Of a stretch of 64,000 bases of DNA, positions 1-19,736 are shown piece by piece. Made by a program: the position numbers and the translations under genes. Origin of the DNA: Spirochaetia bacterium (GTDB lineage Bacteria > Spirochaetota > Spirochaetia > SZUA-6 > Bin103); NCBI GenBank assembly GCA_965208575.1, contig CBDBOV010000002.1, forward strand, positions 544,001 through 608,000, written 5' to 3'. Below the pieces are notes generated by a model. It was given only the letters and a program-made list of their open reading frames with translations, made no database searches and was not told the origin of the DNA. The stretch's first letter is position 1. Every line of letters begins with the position of its first letter.

Positions 1-104
1 TTCATGGCCGCAAGGTCGCGCTCCGCAAGCGCCCCCGGCAGCACCAGGTACCCCTGCAGATCGAACAAGTAATCGCACTGTCTGTCGTCGAGAACGCCGC
101 GCAT
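1..104 (-). CDS. Phytanoyl-CoA dioxygenase (PhyH) family protein, 5' part only (runs off the window)
   Basis: Manual translation from ATG at 104 gives MRGVLDDRQCDYLFDLQGYLVLPGALAERDLAAM. FDLQGYLVLPGAL is a typical PhyH N-terminus. GAGG lies upstream. Confidence 0.7.
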   Translation of the reverse strand, partial: MRGVLDDRQCDYLFDLQGYLVLPGALAERDLAAM

Positions 105-312
105 GGCCCTCACCCTGCCGCAACCGCCGCCGGTCGGCAACCCTCCGCCGCGCGCGGTGCGCGCTGTGGTCCTTCTCGGGACGGCGCTCGTAGCGGCCGC
201 GGCGGCGTTCGCCGGCCCGTCATCCGAGCCGTCCGCCTCGGGTGTACCGGAGCGCGGGGTGGAACCCGGCGGTGCGGCGCTCGAGCGCAGGCGGTGCTTC
301 GCCGCGAGCGCC

Positions 313-2166
313 CTACGGCGTCCCGATCATGCCGGTGCGGCGGAGAATCTGGTCGACGCACTCCTGTGCCGTGCGCGCGTTGGTGTCCACCCGGATCTCG
401 GGACTCTCGGGCGGTTCATACGGACTGCCGATGCCGGTGAAGTTGGGAAGCTCGCCGCGGCGTGCCTTGGCGTACAGCCCCTTGGTGTCGCGCGCCTCGC
501 AGGTACCGAGCGACGCGTCGACGAACACCTCCACGAAGTCGCCCTTCGCGAACAGGCGCCGCGCCGCGTCCCGGTCCGCGCGAAACGGGCTGATCAGGGC
601 TACGATGACGATCAGCCCCGCGTCGACCATCAGGCGCGCCACCTCGGCCACGCGCCGGATGTTCTCGATGCGGTCGTCCTCGGTGAATCCCAGGTCCCGG
701 TTGAGGCCGTGCCGCACATTGTCGCCGTCCAGCACGTAGCTGTGCCTGCCCTCCAGGTGCAGCCGCTGCTCCAGGAGATTCGCCAACGTCGACTTCCCCG
801 CGCCCGACAGGCCGGTCATCCACAGGCAGCGCGCGGACTGGCGCTTCGCTTCGCTGCGCAGGTGCTGGGTGACCTGAAAGCGCTGCCAGCGGATGTTCGA
901 CGAACGGCGCAGCGCGTACCGAATCATGCCGGCGCCCGCCACCGAGGCGGTGAGCTGGTCCAGGAGGATGAAACCGCCGAGCACTTGCGATTCGTCGTAC
1001 GGGGCGAACGGAATGCGCCGGTTGGTCGACACGTCCACCTCGGCCGTGTCGCTCCGCTCCAGCCTCGTGGCCGGGCGCGGCCCTTCCTCGGGGTCCACGA
1101 CGTGCTTGATACGGGTCACGGTGGCGCCCACCTCGATGCCGTGCAGCACAAGCGTCACGGCGCGGCCCACGTACAGGGGAGCCTCGGCCATCCACAGGAG
1201 CGTGGCGCGGAAGTGGTCGGCAACTTCGAGCGGCGCGGAAGCTCCGGCAATCACGTCGCCCCGGCTGACGTCGACGTCTTCGCTGAGGGTGAGCGTGACC
1301 GAGTCGCCGGCGCCGGCGCGCTCGCGCGTGCCCATACCGGCCACGATCGACTCCACCCGCGTTTCCAGGGCCGACGGGAACAGCGCGACCCGGTCTCCCA
1401 CTCGAACGGTACCCGAAGCGATGCGCCCGCAGTAGCCCCTGAAGTCCGGGCTCGGCCGATTCACGTACTGTACCGGCATGCGAAACGGGCCGGCGTCGCG
1501 CGCGGGCTCCTCCACGTCGACCGTCTCCAGGTACGCCAGCAGCGTCGGGCCCGCGTACCATGGCGCGTCGGCCGCGTTCCAGCGCAGGTTGGCGCCGGTC
1601 AGCGCCGAGGTGGGGATCGCGGTGACGTTCGGTATCCCCGCATCGGCCGCGAGCCGCCGGAAGTCGCCGGCGATGGCGTCGAAGCGTGGCTCGCTCCACG
1701 CGACCGCATCCATCTTGTTCACCGCAAGCACAACCGTACGGATCCCGAACGCGGCGGCGATGCGGGTATGGCGGGCGGTCTGGCGCAGCACGCCCTTCGA
1801 TGCGTCGACCAGCACCACCGCCAGGTCGGAGTTCGACGCCGCGGTGGCCATGTTGTGGGTGTACTGGCCGTGTCCCGGGGCGTCGGCCACCACGAAGCGG
1901 CGCCTGCCGGTCGCGAAGTGGAGGTAGGCGACGTCGATGGTGATGCCCTGCTCGCGTTCCGCCTTCAGTCCGTCGGCCAGCAACGCGAGATCGACGGCGT
2001 CTCCCTGGGTGCCGTAGCGGACCGAGTCCTTCTCGACCGACCGCAGCTTGTCTTCGAACACGCGGCCGCAGTCGTACATCAGGCGGCCGATGAGGGTGCT
2101 CTTGCCGTCGTCGACGCTGCCGCAGATCACCAGCTTCAAGGGCTTCCGGGCCTCCGAGCCACCCAT
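313..2166 (-). CDS. cysNC: Bifunctional sulfate adenylyltransferase subunit 1 / APS kinase
   Basis: GTPase motifs CGSVDDGKSTLIGRL, EREQGITIDVAY, DAPGH, NKMD. C-terminal APS kinase GLSGAGKST, LDGDNVRHGLN. Start ATG overlaps the cysD stop (TGATG). Confidence 0.95.
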   Translation of the reverse strand: MGGSEARKPLKLVICGSVDDGKSTLIGRLMYDCGRVFEDKLRSVEKDSVRYGTQGDAVDLALLADGLKAEREQGITIDVAYLHFATGRRRFVVADAPGHGQYTHNMATAASNSDLAVVLVDASKGVLRQTARHTRIAAAFGIRTVVLAVNKMDAVAWSEPRFDAIAGDFRRLAADAGIPNVTAIPTSALTGANLRWNAADAPWYAGPTLLAYLETVDVEEPARDAGPFRMPVQYVNRPSPDFRGYCGRIASGTVRVGDRVALFPSALETRVESIVAGMGTRERAGAGDSVTLTLSEDVDVSRGDVIAGASAPLEVADHFRATLLWMAEAPLYVGRAVTLVLHGIEVGATVTRIKHVVDPEEGPRPATRLERSDTAEVDVSTNRRIPFAPYDESQVLGGFILLDQLTASVAGAGMIRYALRRSSNIRWQRFQVTQHLRSEAKRQSARCLWMTGLSGAGKSTLANLLEQRLHLEGRHSYVLDGDNVRHGLNRDLGFTEDDRIENIRRVAEVARLMVDAGLIVIVALISPFRADRDAARRLFAKGDFVEVFVDASLGTCEARDTKGLYAKARRGELPNFTGIGSPYEPPESPEIRVDTNARTAQECVDQILRRTGMIGTP

Positions 2167-3062
2167 CAGAAATACCCCTCCCGCTTCTTGCGCTCCATCG
2201 ACGCCTCCTCGTCGTGATCGATGACCCGCCCCTCGCGCTCCGACCTGCGCGCCGCCTCGATCTCGGCGACGATCTCGCCGACGCTCGCCGCCGTGCTCTC
2301 CACCGCCGCCGACAGCGGATAACACCCCAGCGTCCGGAAGCGAACGCGCTTGCGGGCCGGCTGCTCACCGGGCTCAAGCGGCATGCGATCGTCGTCCACC
2401 ACGATCCACTGGCCGTTGCGCCGCACCACGGGGCGTTCGGCGGCCAGGTAGAGCGGCACGATCGGGATCTCCTCGCACTTGATGTAGCGCCACACGTCGA
2501 GCTCGGTCCAGCTCGACAGGGCCGCCACCCGCCACGAGTCGCCGGCGGCGAGCCGGGTGGGGTAGAGGCGCCAGATCTCCGGCTGCTGGCGCTTCGGGTC
2601 CCACTGGTGACGGGCGTTGCGCAGCGAAAAGACCCGTTCCTTGGCGCGCGAGGCCTCTTCGTCGCGCCGGGCGCCGATAAATATCACGTCGTGCCGCCCC
2701 TCGTCGAGCGCAGCCAGGAACGGACGCGTCTTCATCTCCGTCGTGTAGCTCTGCGGACTGTGGCTGAACGGGGTGATCCCCTTCCGCGCCCCCTCGTGAT
2801 TGGTGCGGACCCGCAACTCCAGGCCGAAGCGCGCGGCAATCTCGTCGCGGTGCTCGATCATGGCGCGGAACTTCCACGTGGTGTCGACGTGGAGGATGGG
2901 AAAGGGCGGCTTCGCGGGCCAGAACGCCTTGCGCGCGAGGTGCAGGAGGACCGACGAGTCCTTGCCCACCGAGTAGGCCATGACCGGCCGCCGCGCCCGC
3001 GCCACGCCTTCGCGCAAGATCTCGATCGCCTCGGCCTCCAGCTCGTCGAGCCACGCCTTCAC
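2166..3062 (-). CDS. cysD: Sulfate adenylyltransferase subunit 2
   Basis: [42 protein letters not shown]-terminal [14 protein letters not shown] start placed 7 nt after AGGAG. Confidence 0.95.
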
Positions 3063-3172
3063 GTGCACGCTCCTGCCGCCATCGCGTTCCTCCCGCCAGC
3101 CCGTCCCGCACGTTGCACCGTACGGCTCGGGCATGATAATAGACTGCTTGTACAACCATCCAGGACTCCTGA

Positions 3173-4303
3173 ATGGTGAACTTCCGCACGTCTTTTGCGG
3201 GGGAGGCCGAGACGTTGGCGCAGCGCGAAGAGTTCAACCCCATGTCGATGGCGCCTCTGCGCGTGTGGCTGCGCCTGGTCGCCCGGGCGGGCGGAGTGCG
3301 CCGCCCGTTTCGGGGGCGGTTGCAGCAGGCGCTCATCACGAGCGCGATCACCGCGGTTCCGCGCTGGCTCGAGTGGGCCGTCTACGGTGTGCCGATCGCG
3401 CGCACCCGGATCAGCAAGCCGCCGGTGATCATCCTCGGGTTCCCGCGCTCCGGCACGACCCTGCTGCACAACCTGATGGCGCACGATCCCGACCTGGGCT
3501 ACTGCTCCAACTACCAGGCGGCCATTCCGTTCTGCCTGGTCGGCGGCGAGCGGCTCAAGCGGCGGCTGGCTGCGCGGGTGCCGGAGAATCGAGGGATCGA
3601 CAACGTGGCCGCCGACCTGGACCTGCCGCAGGAAGAGGTGTTCGCGCTCGCCATGCACTCCCACCGTTCCTCCGCGCACGGGTTCACTTTTCCTTCCCTG
3701 ATGCCCGAACTGCACCGCAAGTACGTGCTGATGGACGCGCCGGAAGCCGAGGTGAGGGCGTGGCGCAAGGGCTACCTGCAGGTGGTAAAGAAGGCGACCT
3801 ACATGCACGGCGGCAAGCGGGTCGTGCAGAAGGCTACGCCCAATCTCGCGCGCATCCCGGTGATCATGGACATGTTCCCCGGCGCCCTCTACATCCACAT
3901 CGTCCGCAACCCCTACGAGCTCTATCCGTCCTACGTCCACCTGATCTCGACGCTCACCAGGAACTACGGCATGCAGGAGATCACCCCGCAGGAGCTGGAG
4001 GAGGGAGCGGTGCGCATGTACCGGCGAATCATGCGCAAGTATCTCGCTGAACGCCACCTCATCCCCGCCGACCGCTTCATCGAGATCCGGTTCGAGGAGC
4101 TGCGGGACGACCCGCTCGGGGTCCTGGAGCGCGTGTACGGGCATCTTGGACTGAACTGGGAGCAGGCGCGGTCGGCGATCGCGGCCTACGCCGGCACGCA
4201 GGCGTCGTACCGGCAGAATCGCTACGCGGACCGGGAGCACGTGCGGCGCGAAGTCGACGCGCACTGGGGATTCGCGGTGCGGGAGTGGCAGTACCGGCCT
4301 TGA
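3173..4303 (+). CDS. PAPS-dependent sulfotransferase (Sulfotransfer_3, Stf3-like)
   Basis: 5'-PSB loop [16 protein letters not shown], 3'-PB motif [23 protein letters not shown]. Divergent from cysDNC. Confidence 0.9.
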
Positions 4304-6303
4304 GCACGCTCAGCGTCGCGGAAGACCTCAGCCTGCTGCTGCTCGACGAGTCGTCGGGCGTGCTCTACCCGCTGCCGGGGCGGACGCTGGAGATCGGCCT
4401 GGCTGCCGCCGCGCTGCTGGAACTCACGCTGGCCGACCGCATCGACACCGACCTGGAGTCGCTTTACCTGGTGAATGCCGCGCCGCTGGGAGATCCGACG
4501 ACAGACCCGGTGCTGGCACAGATCGCCGCCGGCACGGAGACGCGGTCACCGGAGTACTGGGTGCGCCGTATCGGTGCGCAGCTCGGCGCACGGATCGGAG
4601 AGGCCGCCCTGGCACGGCTGGTGGAGCGCGGTATCCTGGAACGAGCGCCCGGCAACCATTACTTCCTCACCGCCCCGGTGGCGCGTTCGCGGCGCTATCC
4701 GGCGGCCAACGGCGACAGCGCGGACGAGGTTCGCATCCGGCTGATGAAGGTCCTGTTCAGCGACGACATCCCGGAACCGCGCGACGCCGACCTGATCGGA
4801 CTCGCCGAGGCGTGCGGCGTCTTCACCCGCATCCTGAGCCGCGCGGAGCTGGAGCGGGTGCGTGACCGGATCGAGCTGGTGAAGTCGCTCAACCTGCTGT
4901 GCCGCGCGGCCGCGCGGGCGATAGCCGGCGACCTGCGCGAGCGGCCGGCCGCCGCCCGCACCTACCAGCCGATTCCCGATGCCCGCGGGTTGCCGCTGAT
5001 CGGCGCCGGCCTGGCCATGAACGGCGATCTCCAGGAGTTCGTTGCCGGACTGTACCGCGACTACGGACCGATCTGCAGAGTCTCCGCGCCGGGGCGCAAG
5101 ATGATTGTCCTGGGGGGCAGGGAGGCGAACGCGTTCGTGCAGAAACACGCACGCACCCACCTGCGCAGCAACCGGTCGTTCACGGAGTTCTGCCACGCGA
5201 TGGAGACCGACCGGGCGATGATCTCCATGGACGGCCACGACCACATGAAGCTGCGGCGGACCGCGCAGGCGGGCTACTCCCGTTCGGTGATCGAGCGCAG
5301 CATGGACACGGCGATCGACATCGCGCGGCGTGCGGTGGCGTCATGGCCGGTCGGAGATCCGCTGCCGGCGTTTCGCTCGATGCAGCAGATAGTGGCCGAG
5401 CACCTGGGCGTTCTCGCCACCGGCCACTCGCCAGGGGAGTACGTCGAAGACCTGAAGTATTGGTTCGACTCGCTGATCTTCGCCGTGCGGCGCGACCGCC
5501 CGAAGTTCATGCGCGAGTACCGGTTGCGGAAGGTGCGGCCGAGGATAAAGCAGCTCTACCGCCGCGTGGTGGAGTTGCACGCCCCGGAACTGCGTGAAGG
5601 CCGCCCCGGCGACCTGATCGACGCGTTCCTGGAACTGCACCGCGACGAACCGCAGTTCCTGCCGGAGACCGACCTGATGTCCGCGGTGATCGGCCCCTAT
5701 ATCGCGGCGCTCGACACCGTGGCCGGCACCCTCGGCTTCGCGCTGTTGCGCCTGCTCCAGGAACCGGAACACGAGCGGGCGCTGCGCGACGAGGCGGATG
5801 CCGCGTTCGCCGGCGGGACGCCCGATGCACGGCAGATACGAGGGCTGGAGAAGACCCACGCGTTCGTGAAGGAGGTGATGCGCTGCCACACGATCACGCC
5901 GGTGCTCATGCGCACGGCGTGCAACTCGTTCGAGTTCGAGGGCTGCTTCGTGCCCGCCGGCGCTACGCTGCTGCTTGCAGCCGGGGTCGTGCATCGCGAC
6001 CCCGGCTACTATCCCGATCCCGAGCGTTTCGATCCCGACCGGCACCTGCCGCCGCGGCTCGAGTCGAAGCGGACGGGGGCGTTCGTGCCGTTCGGCATCG
6101 GGCCGCACACCTGCATCGGCGGCCCGTTCGCGGAGGTGCAGTTGGCGGTGACCCTCGCCACGATGGTGCACTGCGCCGAGTTCGACCGGGCTCCCTCCGG
6201 CGACCGCCGCATCAGGGTGACGGCCTACCCGAGCATCCGGCCGCACAGGAAGTGCCGCTTCCAGGTGGTGCGGCTCAGGCATGACGGGGGCGCCGCGCAG
6301 TGA
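4300..6303 (+). CDS. Cytochrome P450 with N-terminal GPP34/GOLPH3-like domain
   Basis: First ~205 aa: LSVAEDLSLLLLDESSG..GLAAAALLELTLADRI..LVERGIL..RRYP (GPP34 pattern). P450 part: I-helix AALDT, EVMR (ExxR), PERFDPDR, heme motif FGIGPHTCIG. TTG start overlaps the upstream stop (TTGA). Confidence 0.88.
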   Translation: MSTLSVAEDLSLLLLDESSGVLYPLPGRTLEIGLAAAALLELTLADRIDTDLESLYLVNAAPLGDPTTDPVLAQIAAGTETRSPEYWVRRIGAQLGARIGEAALARLVERGILERAPGNHYFLTAPVARSRRYPAANGDSADEVRIRLMKVLFSDDIPEPRDADLIGLAEACGVFTRILSRAELERVRDRIELVKSLNLLCRAAARAIAGDLRERPAAARTYQPIPDARGLPLIGAGLAMNGDLQEFVAGLYRDYGPICRVSAPGRKMIVLGGREANAFVQKHARTHLRSNRSFTEFCHAMETDRAMISMDGHDHMKLRRTAQAGYSRSVIERSMDTAIDIARRAVASWPVGDPLPAFRSMQQIVAEHLGVLATGHSPGEYVEDLKYWFDSLIFAVRRDRPKFMREYRLRKVRPRIKQLYRRVVELHAPELREGRPGDLIDAFLELHRDEPQFLPETDLMSAVIGPYIAALDTVAGTLGFALLRLLQEPEHERALRDEADAAFAGGTPDARQIRGLEKTHAFVKEVMRCHTITPVLMRTACNSFEFEGCFVPAGATLLLAAGVVHRDPGYYPDPERFDPDRHLPPRLESKRTGAFVPFGIGPHTCIGGPFAEVQLAVTLATMVHCAEFDRAPSGDRRIRVTAYPSIRPHRKCRFQVVRLRHDGGAAQ

Positions 6304-7493
6304 CCGGCGGGATCATCGACGACCCCACGTCGATTACGCCGGAGTGGATGCAGGAGACGCTGTCTCGGGGTGGCGCCGGCGCGGTGGCGGTCCGGCGGGT
6401 GGACGTCCGGGACCTCGGCGCCGGCGTCGGGCAGCTCAGCAGGATCCTGCGGGTGAGGCTCGCAGGCAGTGAGTCGTGTCCGGCGAGCGTGGTGGTCAAG
6501 CTGCCGAGCGCCGACCCGCGAATCTTCCGCATGTGCCGGCGCACGGGGCTGTACCGGCGGGAGGACCGTTTCTATCGCGCCGTGGCGCCCACCGTGCCGG
6601 TGTCGGTACCGTCGATTCTGTTCCGGGAGTTCGACGACCGCACGCACCGGTTCGTGCTGGTGATGGAGGACCTGGCAAACCGGCGCGGCGGCGGGGCGGC
6701 GGGCCGCGACCAGCTCGGCGGCGCGAGTGAAGCGGAGGCGATCACCGCCGTGCGGGCGGCGGCGCGCATCCACGCGGCGTACTGGCGCGCACCGAGCGGC
6801 CGTGCGGGGGCGCGGCCGGCATCCGCGCCGGCAGGCTACCGGGACATCTTCCGCCCGCCGGTGCGGTTCGCGTTGCAGTACGTCTACGCCAGAAGCGTGC
6901 CGAGGGTGCGGCGGGAGTTCCCGGGTGCGCTGTCCGAGGAGGAACTGTCGCTCGTGGAAGCGTTCGGGCCGTCCGTGGCGGCCGTGCTCGGCAGCCTGAG
7001 CCGCGGCGCGCGGACGTTCATCCACGGCGACTACCGGCTCGACAACATGTTCTTTCTGCCGGACGCCGCCGACCGGTTCGCCGTCGTGGACTGGCAGGCG
7101 AGCGCCATCGGCAGCGGACTGTACGACGTGGCGTACTTCATCTGCACCAGCCTGACCGAGACGGTGCGGCGGCGCGCCGAGGGCGGGCTGCTGGAGGCGT
7201 ACCACGCGGCGCTGGTCGAGGCGGGCGTGCGCGGCTTCGCCCGCGACGCGTGCCGGCGGCTGTATCGTGCGTGCGTCCTCGCCTGCCTGGTGAGGATGGT
7301 GATCGTGGCCGGTTCTTCGGGGATCGAGAATGACCGGGCGCGCGAGCTGGCGCGGCAGTGCCTGCGGCGAACGGTGGCGGCGATTCACGACCAGGACGCC
7401 TGGACGGTCGCTGCCGGACGCAAGGCCGGGGGGCTCGGCGGGGTGATCACGTGGCTGGCGGACAGGGCCGCGCGGCGCGAGGCGGCGCGATGA
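6300..7493 (+). CDS. Phosphotransferase, ecdysteroid-kinase-like / DUF1679 / APH superfamily
   Basis: SVVVKLP, REDRFY, LVMEDL, Brenner motif HGDYRLDN, VVDWQ. GTGA overlap with the P450 stop. Confidence 0.82.
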   Translation: MTGGIIDDPTSITPEWMQETLSRGGAGAVAVRRVDVRDLGAGVGQLSRILRVRLAGSESCPASVVVKLPSADPRIFRMCRRTGLYRREDRFYRAVAPTVPVSVPSILFREFDDRTHRFVLVMEDLANRRGGGAAGRDQLGGASEAEAITAVRAAARIHAAYWRAPSGRAGARPASAPAGYRDIFRPPVRFALQYVYARSVPRVRREFPGALSEEELSLVEAFGPSVAAVLGSLSRGARTFIHGDYRLDNMFFLPDAADRFAVVDWQASAIGSGLYDVAYFICTSLTETVRRRAEGGLLEAYHAALVEAGVRGFARDACRRLYRACVLACLVRMVIVAGSSGIENDRARELARQCLRRTVAAIHDQDAWTVAAGRKAGGLGGVITWLADRAARREAAR

Positions 7494-9115
7494 CCGGCCC
7501 GGGGCGCGGCCCGGCGCTCGCGTGGCGGAGCGCGATGGCGGCGCTGTTCCTGGTCGCCCTCGGCAACACCGCGGTGGTCACCGTGCTGCCGGCGATCATC
7601 GCGGACCTGGGCGGCTTCGACCGCTACGCATGGGCATCCACCTCCTACCTGATCGCCGCCACCACCGCCATGCCGATCGCCGGCAGGCTGGCCGATCTTC
7701 ATGGCCGCCGGGCGTTCTTTCTGATCGGCGTGGTGATCTTCATGGCGGCCTCCATACCGGTGGCGCTGAGCGGTACCATGGAGCAACTCGTCCTGTTCCG
7801 GGCCCTGCAGGGGCTCGGCGGCGGCATCATCATGGTCAACAGCACCGCCGCTATCGCGGACCTGGCGCCCCCCAAGGAGCGCGGCAAGTACCACGGCTTC
7901 ATGGGGATGGTGTTCAGCCTTGCCACCGTCGTGGGGCCGCTGGTGGGCGGGATCGTGGTCGACCGCTTGCATTGGTGGGGGTGGGCGTTCCTGATCAACG
8001 TGCCGCTGGGCATTCCGGTGTTGATCCTGCTCGCGCGCTTCTTTCCGCGTCCCGGCGCCCTGGCGCCGGCGCAACCGGAGACCTCAGCCGGCGCCGGCGG
8101 GTCCGCGAGCGCGCCGCGGATCGACTATGCAGGCATCGCCACCCTGGTGCCGGCGACCGTCGCCACCCTGGTGGCGCTGTCGGTGGCGGGGGTGCAGTTT
8201 CCGTGGCGTTCGTGGCAGGTCGTTTGCCTGCTCGCCGTCGGGCTGGCGATGACCGTGGTGTTTCTGGCGGTCGAGTCGCGCTCGCGGTGCCCGATCGTAC
8301 CGCTGACGATCTATCGCTACCGCGGCGTGCCGGCCGCGGTGGCGGCCACCTTCCTGGCAAGCTTCGGCCTGTACGGCATCATTCTGTTCGTTCCGCTGTT
8401 TTTCCAGGCGGTGCAGAATGCCTCCGCCGGACGCAGCGGCGTGTTCCTGGTGCCGATCATCGTCGGCGTCACGGTGGGCGCCGTGGCGGCGGGCCAGTTG
8501 GTGTCCCGCACCGAGGGGCGCGAGCGGCTCCTCGCCGTGGCGGGCGCCGTACTCCTCACCGGCGGCATCTACCTGCTTTCGACGCTGTCCGCCGAGACCG
8601 GCTCCGTGCTGGCCGTTGCCTACGTCCTGCTCATGGGCGCCGGGGTCGGCGCGGTGTTCACGCTGGCGGGGGTGGTGGTGCAGAACGCCGTCCCGCACGA
8701 GGATGCGGGCGCGGCCACCGCGGCCGTACAGTTTCAGCGGGCGGTAGGCGGTACGGTGGGCGTGGCGGTGCTCGGCGCGATGATGGCACGGCGCACCGCG
8801 GACCGGCTCCGCGAGGAGGTACCGGCGCGCGTGCGCGAACTGCTCCCCGACGGGTGGCTGGACCTGGCCAACGCAACCCAACTGCTCGTCGATCGGTCCG
8901 CTGCCGCCACCCTCGCCGAGCAGATTTCGGCGCCAGGGTCGGGCGCGGCCGAGCTGGCCCGGGAAGTAGCCGGCTACGCCGCGGCGGCGTTGGGCGGAGC
9001 GCTCGGCGACACCTTCCTGCTCGCGGCAGCGGTCGCCGGCGCTTCGCTGGCGGTCGCGTTCTTCATGCGCGTCCCCGGGGAGCGTACCAGGGCCGGAGAT
9101 CCGCCCCCAACCTGA
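7490..9115 (+). CDS. MFS transporter, DHA2 (14-TMS drug:H+ antiporter) type
   Basis: GRLADLHGRR (motif A), FRALQGLGGG, GPLVGG, WAFLINVPLG, many TM helices. ATGA overlap at 7490. Confidence 0.9.
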   Translation: MTGPGRGPALAWRSAMAALFLVALGNTAVVTVLPAIIADLGGFDRYAWASTSYLIAATTAMPIAGRLADLHGRRAFFLIGVVIFMAASIPVALSGTMEQLVLFRALQGLGGGIIMVNSTAAIADLAPPKERGKYHGFMGMVFSLATVVGPLVGGIVVDRLHWWGWAFLINVPLGIPVLILLARFFPRPGALAPAQPETSAGAGGSASAPRIDYAGIATLVPATVATLVALSVAGVQFPWRSWQVVCLLAVGLAMTVVFLAVESRSRCPIVPLTIYRYRGVPAAVAATFLASFGLYGIILFVPLFFQAVQNASAGRSGVFLVPIIVGVTVGAVAAGQLVSRTEGRERLLAVAGAVLLTGGIYLLSTLSAETGSVLAVAYVLLMGAGVGAVFTLAGVVVQNAVPHEDAGAATAAVQFQRAVGGTVGVAVLGAMMARRTADRLREEVPARVRELLPDGWLDLANATQLLVDRSAAATLAEQISAPGSGAAELAREVAGYAAAALGGALGDTFLLAAAVAGASLAVAFFMRVPGERTRAGDPPPT

Positions 9116-9233
9116 GCCGCCCGCCGGCCCGGCCGGCACGCGGGGCCACCCGCCGCCGGCCGTCGTACACGCACGCCCGGCAGCTTGCTGGTCAGGTCGC
9201 GTACTCTCCCCGAGACGCGGCACGGGCGCGAAC

Positions 9234-9740
9234 TCACTGCCGCGGAGGGTCGATCGCTCGGTGCAGGCGGATCTGTCGCCCCTGGTCGCGAACGCCCCCG
9301 CCGCGGCGCCACCCCATCGCCTGGTAGAAGTCGATGCCTTGGCGATAGCCGGCCACGGTCCACAGTATCGCCGCGCGGTAGCCGTCCAGGTCGAGGTGGC
9401 GGTGGGCAACGGCGATCAGCGCGCTGCCGACTCCCGTGCGCCAGTGCGGTTCGTCCACGAAGACACTGTCCAGCTCGCCGATCGAGGGATCCACCGGATC
9501 GCGGCTCGGGCCGATGCCGGCGCACCCGACGATCGAGCCCGCGCGCTCGGCGACCCACCACCGGTGCGGCACTGGCCGAGACAGGTCGCGCCGCCAGCGG
9601 GCGACCAGGTCCGGCGTCACGGTTCGATCCGCCTGCGACACCAACTCGCCGAACGAGGTATTCCACGAATCGACGTAGATGCGTGTGACAACCTCGGCGT
9701 CGGACGCCGACGCTGGCCGGATAACGAGCCCCGGCCTCAT
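9234..9740 (-). CDS. GNAT family N-acetyltransferase
   Basis: IRPASASDA..IYVDSW, GELDSVFVDEPHWRTGVGSAL, FYQAMGW. Confidence 0.85.
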   Translation of the reverse strand: MRPGLVIRPASASDAEVVTRIYVDSWNTSFGELVSQADRTVTPDLVARWRRDLSRPVPHRWWVAERAGSIVGCAGIGPSRDPVDPSIGELDSVFVDEPHWRTGVGSALIAVAHRHLDLDGYRAAILWTVAGYRQGIDFYQAMGWRRGGGVRDQGRQIRLHRAIDPPRQ

Positions 9741-10462
9741 GTCACCCCGCACTACCGGCACGCTTCCGGTCCGTCCTGTCCGGCGTTCGGGCACGCATGG
9801 CGCAGTTCCCGCGTTACGCCGAACGTGGTGGGTAACGCGACGGGCGAATGCAAGGGCATGTCGCCTGCACTGCCCCTACCAACCGCAGGAACGTGAACGA
9901 CACCTCGCTACGGCTGACGGCGGAGGTGGTGTTCGCCAAAGGCATGGAAGTAGTGCAGCAGGCGATCCACCATCGGCGCGGCCGACGGCGCGACGCGGCA
10001 CTCGTGTCGGGCCCGATCATGGATGCTGTCGAGCAGCGATTGACCGGCGCTGTCGGCGGCGGGCTGACCGCCATGCCGCGCGCACTCGCGGGCGCAGGAG
10101 AGCAGCACGATGGAGACCGCGGTGGCGACCGACTGCGGGGCTATCTGGGCCGCTTGCTTCAGGTATGCACTGCAGGCGGCGAGTTCCGTGGGTGTATCCG
10201 ACATCACGCTCCAATGCTCCAATGCCGGGCGCCCGTTGGTCCAGGTCAAGTGGCTTCCGAGCCCGTGGGCCGCCGGGGCCGTGGGCTGCCGGGCTCTTCG
10301 GCCACCGGGCCGGCGGGCCGCCACGGGCCAACCGGCTGCCGGCGGCACCGTGGGCGCCGGGCACTCCGGGCACTCCGGACTCCGGCACGGGGGCGCGTCA
10401 TCTCTGCTATTATCGCGCCCGGTGCGCCGTGGTGACGCGGCGCGCCTGAGGAGTGATGCCCT

Positions 10463-11425
10463 GTGGAAGCACGACCGACCGTCCTGGTGCTTGGCTCGCC
10501 GGCCCCGGCCCACCTGCCGGAGCGCACCGTCCTGGAGCCCCTGGCCGAGGTGGTCTACAACCGGGTGAAGACTCGCGAAGAACTGTACGCCGCGGTGCGC
10601 GACGTGGACGCGGTGATGATCGGGCTGGAGAACTTCGATGCGCCGCTGATCGAGAGCATGCGGCGCTGCCGGATCATCTCCCGCTATGGGATCGGCTACG
10701 ACAACATCGATGTCGACGCCGCCACCAGGGCGGGGATCTGGGTGGGGCGGGTGCCCGACTACGGCTGGGAGGCGGTGTCCGACCACGCCCTGGCGCTGTT
10801 CCTGGCCTGTGTGCGCGACCTCGGCAGCCTGGACCGCAGGGCGCGCGCCGGGCAGCCGGGCCGGCGGCGCCCGATGTTCCTGGTCAAGGGCCGTACCTTC
10901 GGAGTAATCGGTTGCGGCGGTATCGGCGGCGCGCTGGTGCGCAAGCTGGCCGGGTTCGGCTTGGCGCACATCCTGGTGCACGACCCGTATATGAGCGCGG
11001 AACAGGTGGCCGCCGCCGGCGGCGAGGCGGTCGACCTGGAGACGCTGCTGCGCGAGTCCGATTTCGTATCGCTGCACACGCCGCTGACCGACGGGACGCG
11101 CGGCATGATCGGCGCTGCGCAGCTCGCCCTGATGAAACCGAGCGCCGTCCTGGTCAACACGTCGCGCGGCCCCGTGGTGGACGAGGCGGCGCTGGCGGCG
11201 GCGCTGGCCGACGGCACCATCGCGGCGGCGGGGCTGGACGTGTTCGAGACCGAGCCGCTGCCCGCCGACAGCCCGCTCACCGGCCTGGACAACGTGATCC
11301 TGACCAACCACCTGGCGTGGTACACCGAGGAGTCGTCGGTGGAGCTGGCCACCAAGGCGGCCCGCAACATCCGCGAAGTGTTCTCCGGCCGCCCGCCCCT
11401 CTACCCCGTCAACCGCATCAAATAA
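10463..11425 (+). CDS. D-isomer-specific 2-hydroxyacid dehydrogenase (SerA/CtBP-like)
   Basis: RYGIGYDNIDV, GVIGCGGIG, SLHTPLT, VNTSRG, GLDVFETEP, TNHLAW. Confidence 0.92.
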   Translation: MEARPTVLVLGSPAPAHLPERTVLEPLAEVVYNRVKTREELYAAVRDVDAVMIGLENFDAPLIESMRRCRIISRYGIGYDNIDVDAATRAGIWVGRVPDYGWEAVSDHALALFLACVRDLGSLDRRARAGQPGRRRPMFLVKGRTFGVIGCGGIGGALVRKLAGFGLAHILVHDPYMSAEQVAAAGGEAVDLETLLRESDFVSLHTPLTDGTRGMIGAAQLALMKPSAVLVNTSRGPVVDEAALAAALADGTIAAAGLDVFETEPLPADSPLTGLDNVILTNHLAWYTEESSVELATKAARNIREVFSGRPPLYPVNRIK

Positions 11426-11457
11426 CCCGCCGGGCGAGCGACGTCAGGATCGGACGG

Positions 11458-12744
11458 GTGATCCGAAAGAAGCTGTTCGCAAGCGTGCTGCTGGTGGCGG
11501 TCGCTGCGATTGTCGCGGCCACACTCCCCGCCGAAGAGATCCCGACGGCGGTGCCGGGGGAGGTGGGGATGTCGGGCGAGCGGCTGCGCGCGATCGATGC
11601 CGTGATGCGGCGCCACGTCGACTCGGGGGAGATTCAGGGGGCGGTCACGGCGGTGGCGCGGCGTGGCAGGGTGGTGCACTTCGAGGCCTACGGACTGATG
11701 GACGTCGGGCGCGGCCGGGCGATGCGGGAGGACGCGATCTTTCGCATGGCTTCCTCGTCGAAACCGGTGCTCGCCGTGGCGGCGATGATGCTGATCGAGG
11801 AGGGGCTCCTGCACCCGAACGACGAGGTAGCCGCGTACCTGCCGGAGTTCGGGGCGATGCAGGTGGCCGTGCTCAAGGAGCCCGCGGACCGGGACGTCAG
11901 CCCCTGGTTCGTGGCCGCGGGCAAGGGCAAGGGGGCGAAGGGCGAGATACCGGAGCACCGCCTGGTGCCGGCACGGCGGGCGATCACCATCCACGATCTG
12001 CTGACCCACACCTCCGGGATCGACGCATCCGGCCTCGGCTCGGCGGTGTCCGCGTGGCCGGAACCGGGCCCGGAGGCGACCCTGGCCAGCCACGTTCCGC
12101 TCTACGCCGGCATGCTCCTGGACTTTCAGCCGGGCACGCGTTGGGGCTACAGCCCGCGGGTGGGCCACGACGTGGTGGCCCGTATCATCGAGATCGCCTC
12201 CGGGCTGTCCTACGACGAGTTCATCCGCGCCCGGATCTTCGCGCCGCTCGGCATGAGAGACACCCACTTCTTTCTGCCGCCGGAGAAGGAACCGAGGCGG
12301 GTGGTGATTCATAGTCTCGATGCCAAGGCGAAGGGCTGGGACCAACCGAGCCGCTACGTCTCCGCCTCCGGCGGGCTCTCCAGCACCGCGCGGGACTACC
12401 TGCGCTTCGAGCAGATGCTCGCCAACGGCGGCACATTGTTCGGGGAGCGCCTCCTCAGCGCCGAGTCGGTTGCGGCCATGTCCAGCAACCAGGTCGGCGA
12501 CCTCTACCAGGTGGACGGCAAGCAGGCAGGCCGCGGGTTCGGCTACGGCGTGGCGGTGGTCCTGGACCCGGCCACCGCAAACACGGCCCGCGGCCGCGGC
12601 GCGTTCGGCTGGGCCGGCGCGTTCGGCACCACCACCTGGACCGACCCGGAGCACGAAGTCACTGCCGTGCTGATGGTGCAGCAGGGCAGCGCACGAGTGC
12701 TCCACGACTTCGAGCACGCCATCCGCGCCGCAATTGTCGACTGA
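11458..12744 (+). CDS. Secreted serine hydrolase, beta-lactamase family (class C/esterase-like)
   Basis: N-terminal signal peptide, FRMASSSKP (SxxK), LLTHTSG, FQPGTRWGYS, FGWAGAFGT. Confidence 0.88.
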   Translation: MIRKKLFASVLLVAVAAIVAATLPAEEIPTAVPGEVGMSGERLRAIDAVMRRHVDSGEIQGAVTAVARRGRVVHFEAYGLMDVGRGRAMREDAIFRMASSSKPVLAVAAMMLIEEGLLHPNDEVAAYLPEFGAMQVAVLKEPADRDVSPWFVAAGKGKGAKGEIPEHRLVPARRAITIHDLLTHTSGIDASGLGSAVSAWPEPGPEATLASHVPLYAGMLLDFQPGTRWGYSPRVGHDVVARIIEIASGLSYDEFIRARIFAPLGMRDTHFFLPPEKEPRRVVIHSLDAKAKGWDQPSRYVSASGGLSSTARDYLRFEQMLANGGTLFGERLLSAESVAAMSSNQVGDLYQVDGKQAGRGFGYGVAVVLDPATANTARGRGAFGWAGAFGTTTWTDPEHEVTAVLMVQQGSARVLHDFEHAIRAAIVD

Positions 12745-13227
12745 GGGCTGCGCGACATCGATACGCCAGGACTATCCCACGCTACGAAACCGCGGTCTGT
12801 CACGCACCGCCTCGTCGCCGCCCCATCGATTCTGGCGACCTGCACCTGATCCGCGGTTCTCATGCCACGATTCACGTGAGCCGGTACGGTCACTCCGTGA
12901 CAGGGAAGACGATGAAAACCGATGCCCGAGCATCGCCCACCAGCCGGCTTTTTTCGGACCAGCCTACGGTCAGCGAACGGTTCGCCGTGGGCCGAGTGCC
13001 TGAAAAAAGTCGAGAAAATCGCTCGCTGCGGGCCTGAGGGGGTTGACATGGTTTCGGGCGCGCGATTGCGCCACGTCCCCGACCCCGCCTGTTCCGCTCC
13101 CCTTGGCGCCCTCAGCGCGCGCTCTCGGCCCGCCGCGTCCGGGTCTGGCGCGCAAAGCCCAAATCGGACGGGCGGCTCGTCCACGGGCCGGCACGGGGCC
13201 ACCGAATACCGGGTGTACCATGGCGGC

Positions 13228-14889
13228 ATGGCACCTGACACCTATACGCAGCCGCGCCCGCCGACGCCGTCAGCGCGGCCTGAACCGGCAGCCACCGGCC
13301 CAGCCGCGACCGCGGCCACCACCGCTGCGAGGGCGCCCGGCGCGAGCGAGACTGCGCCGCTCGCCGTTGCCGACAGCGCAGCGCCTCCGGCCCCGGAGGC
13401 ACCGCCCGACCTGAATCAGCTCGGCAACCGCATCGCCGAGCTGTCGGCGCGCATCCAGGCCGCCACCTACGAGTTGCTGTGTTACGTGCGCGAGTTCGAC
13501 CGCCACCACGGCTGGGAGGGCTTCCGTTCCTGCGCCCACTGGCTCAACTGGCGCACCGGCCTCGACCTCGGCGCTGCCCGCGAGAAGCTGCGCGTGGCCG
13601 CTGCGCTGGCCGATCTCAACCACCTCTCCGCGGCCATGGCCTGCGGTCGGCTGTCCTACTCCATCGTACGCGCCCTGACTCGAGTGGCCACCGCCGACAA
13701 CGAGGCACGGCTGATTGCCGTGGCCTGCTGTGCCACCGCGGCGCAGGTGGAGCGGCTGGTGCGGGGGTGGCGGCAGGCGGACCGGGAGGCGCAGCCGGAC
13801 GCGGAGCAGGTGCGGCTCGCGCGGCGCACGCTGACCACGCGGGTGGACGAGGACGGCATGGTGGTGCTGCGGGCGCGGCTTACGCCTGAGGTAGGCGCGG
13901 TAGTGCTGCGGGCGCTGGAGGCGGCCCTGGAGCAGGTGCCGGCGGCGGAGGAGGAGGATACCGCCGGCGGCGACGAGGCGAGCATCGCGCAGCGGCGTGC
14001 GGATGCGCTGGGGCTGGTGGCCGAGAGCGCGCTGGCCGGCGGGCTTGATCCGGGCAGCAGCGGCGACCGCTTCCAGGTGACGGTACACGTGGAGGCTGAC
14101 GGGCTTTGCTGCCGCGAGGCCGCCACGGCCCCGCGGCACGTTTCCGCGGAAATTGCGCCGGGCAGCGAGGCAGCCTTCGCACCGGCGGCAGCGTTACTGG
14201 GCGGGGTGGCGGAGCAAGTGTCGATCGAGCACGCGGAGAAACTACCGGCCACCGAGGCGCCCGACCGTGACCTGGCGGTCCCGATGCCTGGCCCCGACGC
14301 CGGGCAGGCGGTGATCGAACAAGCAGGAGGCATATACGTCGGCAAGGAGGCAGCGCGTCGCGTCGCCTGCGATGCCGGCCTCGTGGAGCTGCGCCACGGC
14401 GCCGACGGCGAGGTGCTCGAAGTAAGCCGCAGGACCCGCACCATCCCGACCGCGCTGCGCCGTGCCCTGCAGAGCAGGGATCGCAACCAGTGCCAGTTCC
14501 CCGGCTGCGAGTCCCGCCACTGCGACGCCCATCACGTCATGCACTGGGCCGACGGCGGGGAGACGCAGCTCTTCAACCTGGTTCTTGTGTGTAAATTCCA
14601 CCACCGCGCGGTCCACGAGGAGGGGTTTCAGGTGGTCGCTGACGGCGCCGGGGCGTTCCTGTTCCTCCGGCCGAATGGCGAGCCGCTGCCGGCGGTGCCA
14701 CCGGCGCCGCGCTGGGAGGGTGTCGGGCCGCCGCTGGCGCCGACCGTGGAGCGCTTGGCGGCGGCCGGCATCAGCATCGGTCCGCACACCGCTACGCCCG
14801 AGTGGTTCGGCGAATCGCTGCACGTGGCGGCGGCGCTCGACGTGCTGTGGCAGCCGCCGGTGGCGGCGGCGCGCGGCGGCGTTCCCTGA
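13228..14889 (+). CDS. DUF222 (13E12-repeat) / HNH endonuclease protein
   Basis: GFRSCAHWLNWRTG, QRRADAL, RRVACDA, RDRNQCQFPGC..DAHHVMHWADGG..NLVLVCKFHHRAVHE. TACCAT lies 6 nt upstream of the ATG. Confidence 0.88.
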   Translation: MAPDTYTQPRPPTPSARPEPAATGPAATAATTAARAPGASETAPLAVADSAAPPAPEAPPDLNQLGNRIAELSARIQAATYELLCYVREFDRHHGWEGFRSCAHWLNWRTGLDLGAAREKLRVAAALADLNHLSAAMACGRLSYSIVRALTRVATADNEARLIAVACCATAAQVERLVRGWRQADREAQPDAEQVRLARRTLTTRVDEDGMVVLRARLTPEVGAVVLRALEAALEQVPAAEEEDTAGGDEASIAQRRADALGLVAESALAGGLDPGSSGDRFQVTVHVEADGLCCREAATAPRHVSAEIAPGSEAAFAPAAALLGGVAEQVSIEHAEKLPATEAPDRDLAVPMPGPDAGQAVIEQAGGIYVGKEAARRVACDAGLVELRHGADGEVLEVSRRTRTIPTALRRALQSRDRNQCQFPGCESRHCDAHHVMHWADGGETQLFNLVLVCKFHHRAVHEEGFQVVADGAGAFLFLRPNGEPLPAVPPAPRWEGVGPPLAPTVERLAAAGISIGPHTATPEWFGESLHVAAALDVLWQPPVAAARGGVP

Positions 14890-15011
14890 GGGACCTGCGA
14901 CCTGGCGGTGCAGCGCAGCGCGGATGAGCAGCGCGCCCGCAATGGAGACTGCCTCCAGGGATTTTCAGTCCTCATCAGCATGGGATCGCCCTGTCGATCC
15001 GCCTGGGGGTG

Positions 15012-15040
15012 TTGACGTGCATATACATTTATGCAAACCT
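15012..15040 (+). promoter_or_regulatory. Promoter with palindromic operator for the BrnT module
   Basis: TTGACG (-35) followed by TGCATA-N6-TATGCA inverted repeat (15018-15035). Confidence 0.55.
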
Positions 15041-15050
15041 GAGGTGGGCG

Positions 15051-15320
15051 GTGGAGTTCGAGTACGATGCCAAGAAGTCCCGTACCAACGCAGACAAGCA
15101 CGGGATTGACTTTGAGCACGCTCAGAACCTGTGGCAGGACGCTGGACTGCTCACCTTGCCGGCACGATCCGAGAGCGAAGCTCGGTTTCTGGCGGTCGGA
15201 AAGATCATGGATCGGTACGACACGGCTGTCTTCACTGAGCGGTCCGCAAGGGTACGATTGATCAGTGTTCGGCGGTCTCGCGCGGAGGAGAAGGATCTGT
15301 ATGAGCGCAACCAACAGTGA
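15051..15320 (+). CDS. BrnT family ribonuclease toxin
   Basis: MEFEYDAKKSRTNADKHGIDFEHAQNLW..RFLAVG..RLISVRRS. Confidence 0.9.
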   Translation: MEFEYDAKKSRTNADKHGIDFEHAQNLWQDAGLLTLPARSESEARFLAVGKIMDRYDTAVFTERSARVRLISVRRSRAEEKDLYERNQQ

Positions 15321-15567
15321 GAATCTGGAACAGCGATTCGATGCCGGTGAATCGGTCCTCGACTACTTTGAGACGGATGTGACGTTGACCATAGGCCGGT
15401 TGGCAGACCTGGCGCGGATCCTCAACATGTCTGCGCTCTCTCGTGAGGCAGGGATCAACATCCAGACGCTGCAGGCGAAGATCAGGAGACGGACACCGCT
15501 GTCGGGAAGCGAGACGCGCCGGATCGTCCTTGCCCTCAAGCGCCATCACCTTGCAACCATCGCCTGA
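15301..15567 (+). CDS. Putative antitoxin (CopG/BrnA-like N-terminus plus HTH-like C-terminus)
   Basis: Overlaps the brnT 3' end. N-terminus EQRFDAGESVLDYF. C-terminus LNMSALSREAGINIQTL. Confidence 0.7.
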   Translation: MSATNSENLEQRFDAGESVLDYFETDVTLTIGRLADLARILNMSALSREAGINIQTLQAKIRRRTPLSGSETRRIVLALKRHHLATIA

Positions 15568-15582
15568 GCGTTCTGGGGACAA

Positions 15583-16125: not shown

Positions 16126-16241
16126 GGGCGACTATAGCACGCCGAGCGTTGGTCATGCGCTGTCCAGGCCCGGCCGGTGGCCGTGGTGGCCGCCAGGGTC
16201 CGGCGGCACCAGGTCGAGGAAGTTGCTATACTGGTGGCGCA

Positions 16242-18046: not shown

Positions 18047-18330
18047 TCCAAGTTGGGGCCTCGCGATCGGCACCGCCGGTTGCTTGGTCAGGTGCTGTGT
18101 CCAGGACCGTCCGGTGGCCGCCGACGTGCGGGGGCTGCATGATGCGGTGGCGGCGGTCGGCGAGGTGGAAGGTGCCACGTTTGTCGTCAGTCACGGTATC
18201 GGCCGAGCTACAAACGCGCGCCAATCGCCCCGTCGACCATCCGCAATCGCTCTCTCCGCCCTTGCTCACACAGGCCCACTGGTCCGTGGCCCGTGGCACC
18301 GGCGCGGCCTGTCGTGCGATCTTTCCTACC

Positions 18331-19689: not shown

Positions 19690-19736
19690 CCTGCCCGCCG
19701 CTGATGTCACGTGTAGCCGGTCCGCGGGCGGTGGCT

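Follow-up and report, generated by a model that had tools for sequence, protein, structure and literature searches.

Layout of the block

The stretch of DNA analysed here, which we call the window, is 64,000 nucleotides (nt) long with ~70% G+C and covers positions 544001-608000 of contig C2 in the genome of a Spirochaetia bacterium (GenBank assembly GCA_965208575.1; genome G000 below). Its left end holds a block of six genes for sulfate activation, sulfotransfer, oxidation, phosphorylation and transport, with gene identities taken from Pfam and NCBIfam models at curated cut-offs. Two genes lie on the minus strand: cysD, the small subunit of sulfate adenylyltransferase (2166..3134; NF009214, Pfam PAPS_reduct), and cysNC, the large subunit joined to an adenosine 5'-phosphosulfate (APS) kinase (313..2325; NF004035, Pfam APS_kinase). 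The other four run on the plus strand. The first encodes a 362-residue sulfotransferase of the Sulfotransfer_3, mycobacterial Stf type that depends on 3'-phosphoadenosine 5'-phosphosulfate (PAPS) (3215..4303; Pfam, 129 bits), and the second a 667-residue protein of the GPP34_L family, with an N-terminal GPP34 (GOLPH3/Vps74-like) domain (4300..4944; Pfam GPP34, 116 bits) followed by a cytochrome P450 (P450) domain (4945..6303; Pfam p450, 189 bits). They are followed by a 397-residue EcKL/APH (CHK-like) small-molecule kinase (6300..7493; EcKL 63.6 bits, APH 58.2 bits) and a 541-residue efflux transporter of the major facilitator superfamily (MFS), DHA2/EmrB-like (7490..9115; MFS_1, 175 bits). 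The original prediction for this DNA had described cysD-cysNC as divergent from four genes joined by 4-nt overlaps, and the sequence and both model collections bear this out. Its sulfotransferase, EcKL/APH kinase and MFS labels also stand; what it called a P450 is a GPP34-P450 fusion whose first domain, the most distinctive trait of the block, it had missed.

The plus-strand stop/start overlaps can be read directly as TTGA at 4300-4303, GTGA at 6300-6303 and ATGA at 7490-7493, which suggests translational coupling across the four genes. On the minus strand the longest cysNC open reading frame (ORF) opens at GTG 2325, and the ATG at 2166 is the likely start; it shares one base with the cysD stop (TGATG at 2166) and has a GGAGG upstream, so that cysD and cysNC are probably translationally coupled as well. 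The cysD ATG at 3134 is kept in the two other genomes that carry the block (G006 and G017, described below). For the sulfotransferase gene, the TTG at 3215 is ATG in the G017 orthologue, a GGAGG lies 8 nt upstream, conservation begins at 3215, and a 1-nt indel in G006 disrupts the frame running from an ATG at 3173. This start evidence, read from a three-way alignment, gives a divergent region of ~80 bp (3135..3214) between cysD and the sulfotransferase gene, in place of the 110 bp first proposed. Both promoters presumably sit in this region. A promoter scan gave 0 promoter-like sites vs. 0.4 expected from shuffles and no sigma-70-like site in the divergent gap, and a terminator scan gave 4 terminator-like sites vs. 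2.9 expected from shuffles, nothing above expectation.

As the prediction had it, a dioxygenase gene of the PhyH family (Fe/2-oxoglutarate) follows cysNC, ~208 bp past it on the minus strand. Only its 5' part (1..104) is in the window; the gene runs off the left edge to about C2:543236, and Pfam PhyH matches the left-flank part. It adjoins cysNC in G006 and not in G017, where it lies outside the mobile block, and is possibly an accessory gene. At least 9 PhyH paralogues are present in G000.

The six genes are inherited, transferred and lost together

We compared the block across 24 genomes of the window's family (G-labels, G000 included), of which the others are 76-98% complete. Positions 313-9115 are intact in three of them, G000, G006 and G017. 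In G006, from the same genus, the interval is matched end to end at 95% nt identity and the flanks are collinear too. In G017, from another genus, the match covers window 313-9068 at 87-89% nt identity, opening at the cysNC stop and closing about 45 nt short of the MFS gene stop. By blastn, the sequences on either side of the block in G017 have their matches at five other sites in G000, at 66-79% nt identity only, and the housekeeping cys operon of these two genomes is 81% identical, vs. 87-89% for the block.

Two genomes of a sister genus hold remnants. In G020 (G020:C2:847061-855410) cysNC is interrupted by ~4 kb, cysD is joined without a break to what is left of the MFS gene, its 3' part, and the sulfotransferase, fusion and kinase genes are missing; in G013 (G013:C1:345630-346283) only 654 bp of cysNC are left. 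The remaining family genomes give weak paralogous matches to the block or none. The six genes, set out as two divergent transcription units, are thus an accessory, horizontally mobile unit that is transferred and decays together. The synteny that the prediction called for exists, with the four genes and cysDNC syntenic in G006 and G017 and sub-modules recurring in other phyla.

A second, dedicated set of PAPS-forming enzymes

CysNC scores 827.9 bits against NF004035 (cut-off 715), and its APS-kinase domain is full length (Pfam APS_kinase, 220 bits, 3-152 of 152). CysD scores 441.1 bits against NF009214 (cut-off 413) and also matches Pfam PAPS_reduct. By these family models both are bona fide members, predicted to make APS and then PAPS.

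Genes of the PAPS_reduct family number exactly three in this genome: the window's cysD, a cysH-like gene (C2:347980-348504) and a second cysD (C2:348669-349331). The latter two belong to a housekeeping cysH-cysD-cysN-cobA/hemD operon at C2:347.7-353 kb, about 195 kb from the block, in which the second cysD/cysN pair (C2:348.5-351.3 kb) stands after the cysH-like gene and before a TP_methylase/HemD (siroheme) fusion. The proteins of this pair are 34% and 33% identical to the window's copies, and the APS-kinase domain of the housekeeping cysN is matched in part only (3-82 of 152). A sulfite reductase (NIR_SIR) is encoded on contig C1. Four relatives were tested for the housekeeping operon and all have it (78-95% nt identity).

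No cysH or sulfite reductase gene lies inside the 64-kb window, as the prediction had noted, nor does cysDNC belong to an assimilatory operon continuing leftward: among 15 ORFs scanned in the 20 kb left of the window there is no cysH, cysI or cysJ. That flank holds a DUF4143 ATPase, a GFO/IDH/MocA oxidoreductase, further PhyH genes, a peptide-type ABC importer and a transposase. Because a separate housekeeping set exists and the window copy transfers and decays with the block, the window cysDNC is a second, dedicated, non-assimilatory copy, and the idea that the cluster has its own PAPS supply is upheld.

Sulfotransferase, kinase and exporter

The sulfotransferase scores 129.2 bits against Sulfotransfer_3 (cut-off 27). 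Two motifs, which we take to be the 5'-phosphosulfate and 3'-phosphate (PAPS) binding motifs, are preserved in all 12 fusion-linked sulfotransferase homologues: R, G, T and T of PRSGTT, and R, N, P and the final S of RNPxxxxxS, are invariant. Among solved structures the enzyme comes closest to 2z6v (E 8e-14), 4gox, 2zq5 and the CurM and OLS sulfotransferase domains; 2z6v is presumably mycobacterial Stf9 and 2zq5 Stf1. We found 155 homologues, the closest outside the family being 70-75% identical and including proteins from metagenome-assembled genomes (MAGs) of Gemmatimonadota. In the protein listing (P-labels), outside-family sulfotransferases P0124 and P0127 are 70-71% identical, and outside-family fusions P0005 and P0014 are 61-62% identical, to their window counterparts, and the contigs of the two sulfotransferases equal those of the two fusions in length. 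Several homologues at 32-38% identity carry the automatic JGI name omega-hydroxy-beta-dihydromenaquinone-9 sulfotransferase, which is Stf3, so that the analogy with Stf3 drawn in the prediction has homology behind it.

The kinase scores 63.6 bits against EcKL (cut-off 22) and 58.2 bits against APH. In five of five fusion-linked homologues the H, G, first D, R and N of HGDxRxDN and the DWQ motif are invariant, with the second D kept in four of five; the window protein reads HGDYRLDN and VVDWQ. Among solved structures the kinase has weak relatives only (3dxp and the kinase domain of ACAD11). The protein falls in a large CHK-like family of bacteria (432 members at E ≤ 1e-20; 'CHK kinase-like' clusters in the Atlas), and its nearest outside relatives, 52-58% identical, are on contigs other than those of the fusion. 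For the MFS exporter the best subfamily model is DHA2/EmrB TIGR00711, at 216.3 bits just below the cut-off of 230.2. A crude hydropathy scan shows 13 hydrophobic peaks, two pairs of them overlapping, where the DHA2 type calls for 14 transmembrane segments.

The GPP34-P450 fusion

In the listed 672-residue ORF the GPP34 domain (116 bits) covers residues 12-213 and the P450 domain comes after it. Among the matches listed, 118 of 120 homologues of the fusion have both domains, the exceptions being P0110 and P0112. This two-domain architecture was named GPP34_L and reported, in the portion of the paper available, as found only in sponge symbionts (Ferreira et al., Microbiome 2025; PMC11706023); by its domain make-up the window protein is a member of that family, of which the published set counts 656 genes. 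A scan of species-representative genomes returned 496 relatives, and the best 80 of these all come from MAGs, of more than 10 phyla, with names such as Poriferisodalis, Entotheonella, Multivorans, Palauibacter, Latescibacterota and SAR202 that are typical of sponge symbionts.

A single GPP34 domain sequence matched no solved structure and a profile was needed: that of 23 fusion N-domains matches GOLPH3 (3kn1) at E 1.5e-11, and on this profile evidence the domain is homologous to the GOLPH3/Vps74 helical domain. In GOLPH3 the pocket for phosphatidylinositol 4-phosphate (PI4P) is described as W81, R90, R171 and R174, with a sulfate ion sitting in it in the crystal (Wood et al., 2009; PMC2806290, in the portion available). 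In an alignment of low identity, the W81 column of the 23 fusion domains holds Pro in 16 and Trp in none, the R90 column Ala in 22 and Arg in none, the R171 column Asp or Glu in 16 and Arg in none, and the R174 column Arg in nine; the window protein has Pro, Ala, Ala and Gly. The pocket residues are thus not conserved in the 23 aligned domains, in which R47, D69, R147, D162 and C172 are invariant instead.

The accessible text of PMC11706023 proposes GPP34 proteins as secreted PI4P-binding effectors and analyses the flanks of the short form only. Non-conservation of the pocket speaks against this idea for the fusion. The GPP34 domain begins at about residue 4 and no hydrophobic segment was found; a domain reaching the first residues of the protein leaves no room for a signal peptide. 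From the sequences we infer that the domain may be a lipid- or membrane-docking module of the oxygenase and not a reader of PI4P. A few GPP34 domains joined to a Rieske domain in place of the P450, described in the same part of PMC11706023, fit a docking module.

The P450 half has its heme-ligand Cys and ExxR motif intact, C605, G599, G601, G607, E525 and R528 being invariant in 26 sequences, and the window protein has an I-helix AALDT (the acid-alcohol pair). By these motifs the domain is predicted to be catalytically competent. An AlphaFold model of the whole fusion has a pLDDT of 87.3 and a pTM of 0.81. The nearest solved structures are those of Methylococcus CYP51, CYP184A1, CYP170A1 and P450 BM3, and by Foldseek the P450 half of the model resembles the lipid-oxidising P450s CYP184A1, BM3 and CYP51. 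When the whole model was searched with Foldseek, matches to the P450 domain prevailed and substrate classes were not told apart. Methylococcus CYP51 is the top sequence match among solved structures, over residues 409-634 only, the C-terminal half (E 1.5e-30). We rejected assignment as an orthologue of CYP51, the sterol 14α-demethylase, because the match is partial and Foldseek ranks CYP184A1 and BM3 equally.

Variants of the architecture were also seen. P0025 (926 residues) has two GPP34 domains ahead of the P450. P0026 (649 residues; GPP34, an N-terminal P450 half and a C-terminal sulfotransferase half) and P0042 (a truncated MFS with GPP34 and P450) look like truncated or read-through gene calls and were not used as evidence of linkage. 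Elsewhere in G000 there are two stand-alone short GPP34 genes, at C5:811878-812495 (49-51% identical to the fusion N-domain) and C3:380409-381011 (39%), and similar short copies occur in nearly every genome of the family. A P450 match at G000:C3:759086-760528, 25% identical to the P450 domain of the fusion, has two in-frame TGA stops and may be a pseudogene.

What travels with the fusion in other genomes

We took a census of 91 fusion loci, made up of the 80 public MAG loci (L-labels) given by the best relatives, 10 from the window's family and the window itself, each extended by ±10 kb, with family hidden Markov models built from clustered neighbours. Within 3 kb of the fusion, an AcrB-type pump of the resistance-nodulation-division (RND) superfamily is encoded in 40 loci (42 anywhere in ±10 kb) and a DHA2-like MFS transporter in nine, so that one or the other pump is present in 49 of the 91. 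At the same distance a Rieske oxygenase with a KshA_C domain is found in 31 loci, a homologous sulfotransferase in 13, an EcKL kinase in 10, and a reductase of the 3β-hydroxysteroid dehydrogenase/epimerase type (SdmB/HpnA-like) in eight. Within 7 kb, an Amino_oxidase flavoprotein occurs in 17 loci and a Sterol_MT_C methyltransferase in 11. The only loci of the 91 that combine sulfotransferase and kinase are the window and its two orthologues. In other phyla the sub-modules fusion plus sulfotransferase and fusion plus kinase plus MFS recur.

Representatives of the steroid-type neighbours were scored against solved structures and equivalog models. The best solved relatives of the Rieske protein are KshA (E 6e-22); it reaches only 28.9 bits against the SdmA model (cut-off 600) and is not SdmA. 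The reductase falls below both equivalog cut-offs (SdmB, 215.8 bits vs. 600; HpnA, 214.4 vs. 367.65). A steroid 5α-reductase gene (Pfam Steroid_dh, 170 bits) stands at L076:12907-13800 and L080:13087-13848, in a Bryobacterales MAG and a Latescibacterota MAG, directly after the SdmB/HpnA-like reductase and GPP34-P450 genes. In L004, L005 and L006 (about 10000-16000 in each) two tandem GPP34-P450 genes follow an RND pump; in L005 and L006, which are among the nearest outside relatives of the window protein, KshA_C, DUF1295 or FA_desaturase genes lie between the tandem fusions, and an Amino_oxidase flavoprotein and a KshA-like Rieske gene come after them.

HAL2-type phosphatases remove 3'-phosphoadenosine 5'-phosphate (PAP), the by-product of sulfotransferases. 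One is encoded 1.9 kb from the fusion, just past the sulfotransferase gene, in L027 (13873-14838) and in L045; the L027 protein, the only copy scored, is a 3'(2'),5'-bisphosphate nucleotidase of eukaryote type (TIGR01330, 303.7 bits vs. a cut-off of 267). PAP phosphatase genes near the fusion in L074 and L075 stand among housekeeping genes (prs, L25, Pth) and were not counted as linked. In L023, L027 and L073 a PhyH gene is no more than 0-145 bp away from the fusion gene.

A tree of 69 fusion proteins, from which 22 loci with no clean full-length fusion call were omitted, has three well-supported clades. One unites the window and its two orthologues with L003, L005, L006, L007 and L019. Another, of 15 proteins, holds all other sulfotransferase-type and kinase-plus-MFS-type loci in the tree and is drawn from Latescibacterota, Chloroflexota, Gemmatimonadota, Pseudomonadota and the window's family. 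The third, of 46, contains the RND, Rieske, methyltransferase and reductase contexts. Phyla are mixed throughout, which fits frequent horizontal transfer, and the window's family is represented in all three clades.

Sponge association

The original prediction had raised a sponge symbiont as the possible host. Part of window 3100-9115 is contained in 24 sequencing runs from 9 studies. Four runs, each from a different study and three with the label sponge metagenome, were compared with window 1-9400 and cover it in all 30 bins. Listed contig pieces that span the divergent gap and the 6300 and 7490 junctions are 94-97% identical to the window, and none of the listed pieces crosses the 4300 junction. 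With contigs at this identity in the sponge metagenome runs of three studies, and with a fusion family that the available text of PMC11706023 gives as sponge-only, the host idea holds: the bacterium is sponge-associated.

Proposed function

Read together, the genes suggest a self-contained module that would hydroxylate a steroid-like or isoprenoid lipid, sulfate and/or phosphorylate it and export it, and with modest confidence this is the explanation we favour. The P450 would hydroxylate the hydrophobic substrate while the GPP34 domain docks to lipid or membrane; the sulfotransferase would esterify the hydroxyl with sulfate, using PAPS from CysDNC; the kinase would phosphorylate the same or another hydroxyl; and the MFS pump would expel the anionic product. 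What the module acts on, in which sequence its steps run, which way the pump works and whether one molecule receives both sulfate and phosphate are matters of inference. A steroid-like skeleton is the leading candidate because of the genes that travel with the fusion family. The design put forward in the prediction, with PAPS supply, P450, sulfotransferase, kinase and exporter as one unit, holds, the block being conserved and mobile as a unit.

A broader proposal, doubtful as it stands, is that GPP34-P450 clusters form a horizontally shared steroid-remodelling toolkit of sponge symbionts in more than 10 phyla, by which sterols of the holobiont are modified and pumped back out. Such a toolkit could oxidise, alkylate, reduce, sulfate or phosphorylate sterols; GPP34 could be a sterol- or membrane-docking module for its oxygenases, and the window block could be the most complete sulfating version.

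Several observations weigh against a steroid-tailoring module. The sterol idea of the original prediction is backed by steroid-type enzymes beside fusion relatives in other genomes and not by the window's own genome, in which no sterol methyltransferase or Amino_oxidase flavoprotein was found and the one Rieske match is weak; the steroid argument is therefore indirect, borrowed from proteins 32-64% identical. The fold of the P450 fits fatty-acid P450s (CYP184A1, BM3) as well as CYP51. The closest outside fusions (L003-L007, 58-64% identity) have no sulfotransferase, kinase or MFS gene within 10 kb, and in their genomes the best sulfotransferase homologue is 39-43% identical and outside the locus in three of five, with none found in the other two. 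All four plus-strand genes together occur in none of the 80 public loci and were found in no genome outside the family, and searching with the window cysDN found no such pair near the fusion in any of those 80. The six-gene block contains no ferredoxin or reductase partner for the P450, and no RNA run is listed among those matching window 3100-9115. DHA2 pumps are best known for cationic, lipophilic drugs rather than anionic esters. The census itself is a best-hit sample (80 of the 496 relatives plus the family) with near-duplicates such as L014/L015 and L049/L051; ORF calling in its high-GC loci is crude, and the only check on background is that hits become fewer with distance inside each locus.

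Alternative explanations

The two main alternatives concern the substrate. The block might inactivate and expel a toxic non-steroid metabolite of the sponge or of a co-symbiont, a terpenoid or alkaloid, as a phase I/II/III detoxification system whose kinase acts like an antibiotic phosphotransferase. We think this rather unlikely, although 49 of the 91 loci encode an efflux pump no more than 3 kb from the fusion, antibiotic kinases are among the APH/EcKL members by Pfam names, the block is mobile, patchy and decaying in G020 and G013, and the fusion family is confined to a chemically rich sponge habitat (PMC11706023, available portion). The recurrent sterol methyltransferase, SdmB/HpnA-like reductase and 5α-reductase neighbours fit steroid tailoring better, and a costly private PAPS supply would be unusual for resistance; the mechanism overlaps that of the lipid-tailoring module, and only substrate and purpose differ. 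Improbable in our view is a sulfomenaquinone-like pathway, in which the P450 would hydroxylate the chain end of the bacterium's own polyprenyl quinone or isoprenoid and the Stf3-like enzyme would sulfate it, giving an envelope or signalling lipid. It draws on the Stf3-named homologues at 32-38% identity, on the solved relatives 2z6v and 2zq5, and on a P450 gene beside an Stf gene as in the published operon (PMC7404182, available portion), but the Stf3 names are automatic annotations on distant homologues, and the cyp128-stf3 operon, as far as that portion describes it, has no kinase and no private cysDNC. A patchy mobile block carried by 3 of 24 family genomes is not where one would look for the genes of an endogenous core lipid, and such a pathway leaves unexplained why the P450 family should be confined to sponge symbionts, as the available text of PMC11706023 has it.

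The published effector idea would have a secreted GPP34 protein bind host PI4P and block phagosome maturation, its gene neighbours being unrelated. The profile match of GPP34 to GOLPH3/Vps74 (E 1.5e-11) and the restriction of the family to sponge symbionts in the accessible text of PMC11706023 agree with it. Against it, the PI4P pocket residues are not conserved in the 23 fusion domains, the domain opens at about residue 4 and the N terminus has no hydrophobic segment, and its partner is an intact P450, requiring heme and reducing partners. In addition, the fusion gene overlaps by 4 nt on both sides with its neighbours, which places it among genes for cytoplasmic enzymes, and in most loci it is linked to pumps and oxygenases; for the fusion we consider an effector role very unlikely. 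Least credible of all is ordinary sulfur assimilation, with cysDNC serving cysteine synthesis and its neighbours there by chance. CysD and CysNC are indeed bona fide by curated cut-offs, but the separate cysH-cysD-cysN-siroheme operon is the conserved one, the window copy moves with the four-gene operon between genera and decays alongside it in G020, and a full-length APS-kinase domain is present in the window copy only.

Relation to known systems

The window fusion has the same two-domain architecture and length as the GPP34_L proteins of PMC11706023. The differences from that paper, as far as its available text goes, lie in the setting: here the long form is in an operon with a sulfotransferase, a kinase and an exporter next to PAPS genes, its relatives have genes for efflux pumps and steroid-type enzymes as neighbours, and the residues of the PI4P pocket are not conserved. 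Nowhere in the main text of PMC11706023 do the words sulfotransferase, MFS or sulfate appear. Full-text searches for literature linking GPP34, sponge and sterol, and for literature linking sponge symbiont, sulfotransferase and cytochrome P450, found no relevant paper.

In Mycobacterium tuberculosis, CYP128 hydroxylates menaquinone-9 and Stf3 then sulfates it (PMC7404182, available portion). The likeness to cyp128-stf3 is a P450 gene beside an Stf-type sulfotransferase gene; the window differs in having the sulfotransferase first, a GPP34 domain on the P450, and a kinase, an MFS pump and a private cysDNC in addition. Clusters for sterol synthesis in bacteria offer another comparison: sponge-symbiont sterol methyltransferases are clustered with sdmA/sdmB (Brown et al., Nat Commun 2023; PMC10070321, available portion), and a sterol methyltransferase and an SdmB-like reductase recur beside fusion relatives too. 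The window block has none of these genes, and the Rieske protein that neighbours fusion relatives is KshA-like, not SdmA. The main text of PMC10070321 has no mention of GPP34, Rieske or P450, nor do the six of its seven supplementary files that were searched.

The pairing of sulfate activation with a sulfotransferase recalls rhizobial nodPQ-nodH, where a dedicated CysDN/CysC-type PAPS supply stands beside a sulfotransferase that decorates an exported symbiosis molecule; the window likewise has a pathway-dedicated second copy of sulfate activation linked to a sulfotransferase. The Nod system sulfates a lipo-chitooligosaccharide and, to our knowledge, has no P450 or kinase, and the window sulfotransferase scores only 22.7 bits against the nodulation-type NoeE model (cut-off 500), its only such match. 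Two eukaryotic likenesses are analogies only. The oxidise-conjugate-export logic is that of phase I/II/III handling, although the window sulfotransferase is of the bacterial Stf type and not a cytosolic SULT as in eukaryotic phase II, and the kinase matches the family model of the insect EcKL kinases.

The ingredients are thus known, namely GPP34_L, the pairing of P450 and Stf, and a private PAPS supply. In the literature searched we found neither their combination in one mobile block nor a link of the sponge-specific GPP34_L proteins to efflux and steroid-type chemistry. Few families are reported as exclusive to sponge symbionts over many phyla, and GPP34-P450 fusions are among them (PMC11706023, available portion). 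The one idea published on their function is that of a secreted effector that blocks phagocytosis; the operon and the neighbourhood census point to cytoplasmic small-molecule chemistry instead. If the substrate is a sterol, the block is relevant to the origin of sterol sulfates and other odd sterols in sponges, and to how sterane biomarkers attributed to sponges are read. If the toolkit proposal were true, symbionts and not the animal would make part of the unusual sponge sterol pool, polar sterol sulfates included. The block also shows that tailoring clusters can be scaffold-free with a private cofactor supply, and genome mining based on core synthases would not flag them.

Other genes in the window

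Right of the block, the listed 763-residue ORF at 10453-12744 is a composite: a 2-hydroxyacid dehydrogenase gene occupies 10463-11425 in another frame (third-position G+C, GC3, 0.92), and a gene of the beta-lactamase family (serine hydrolase) then fills the C-terminal half. A sulfatase gene (17980-19689, plus strand) stands back to back with another PhyH dioxygenase gene (19737-20786, minus strand) at 17980-20786, and one sulfatase query gives 60 tblastn matches in G000. Genes of mobile or defence type lie at 12922-14889, 14500-16000, 22563-23786 and 41963-43303; such genes right of the block include a DUF222+HNH protein, an AAA_21/AbiEii-like ATPase (15999-17420), a HipA kinase and a reverse transcriptase of the group-II-intron type. 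At 14.5-16 kb of the window the G+C content falls to 0.61-0.65.

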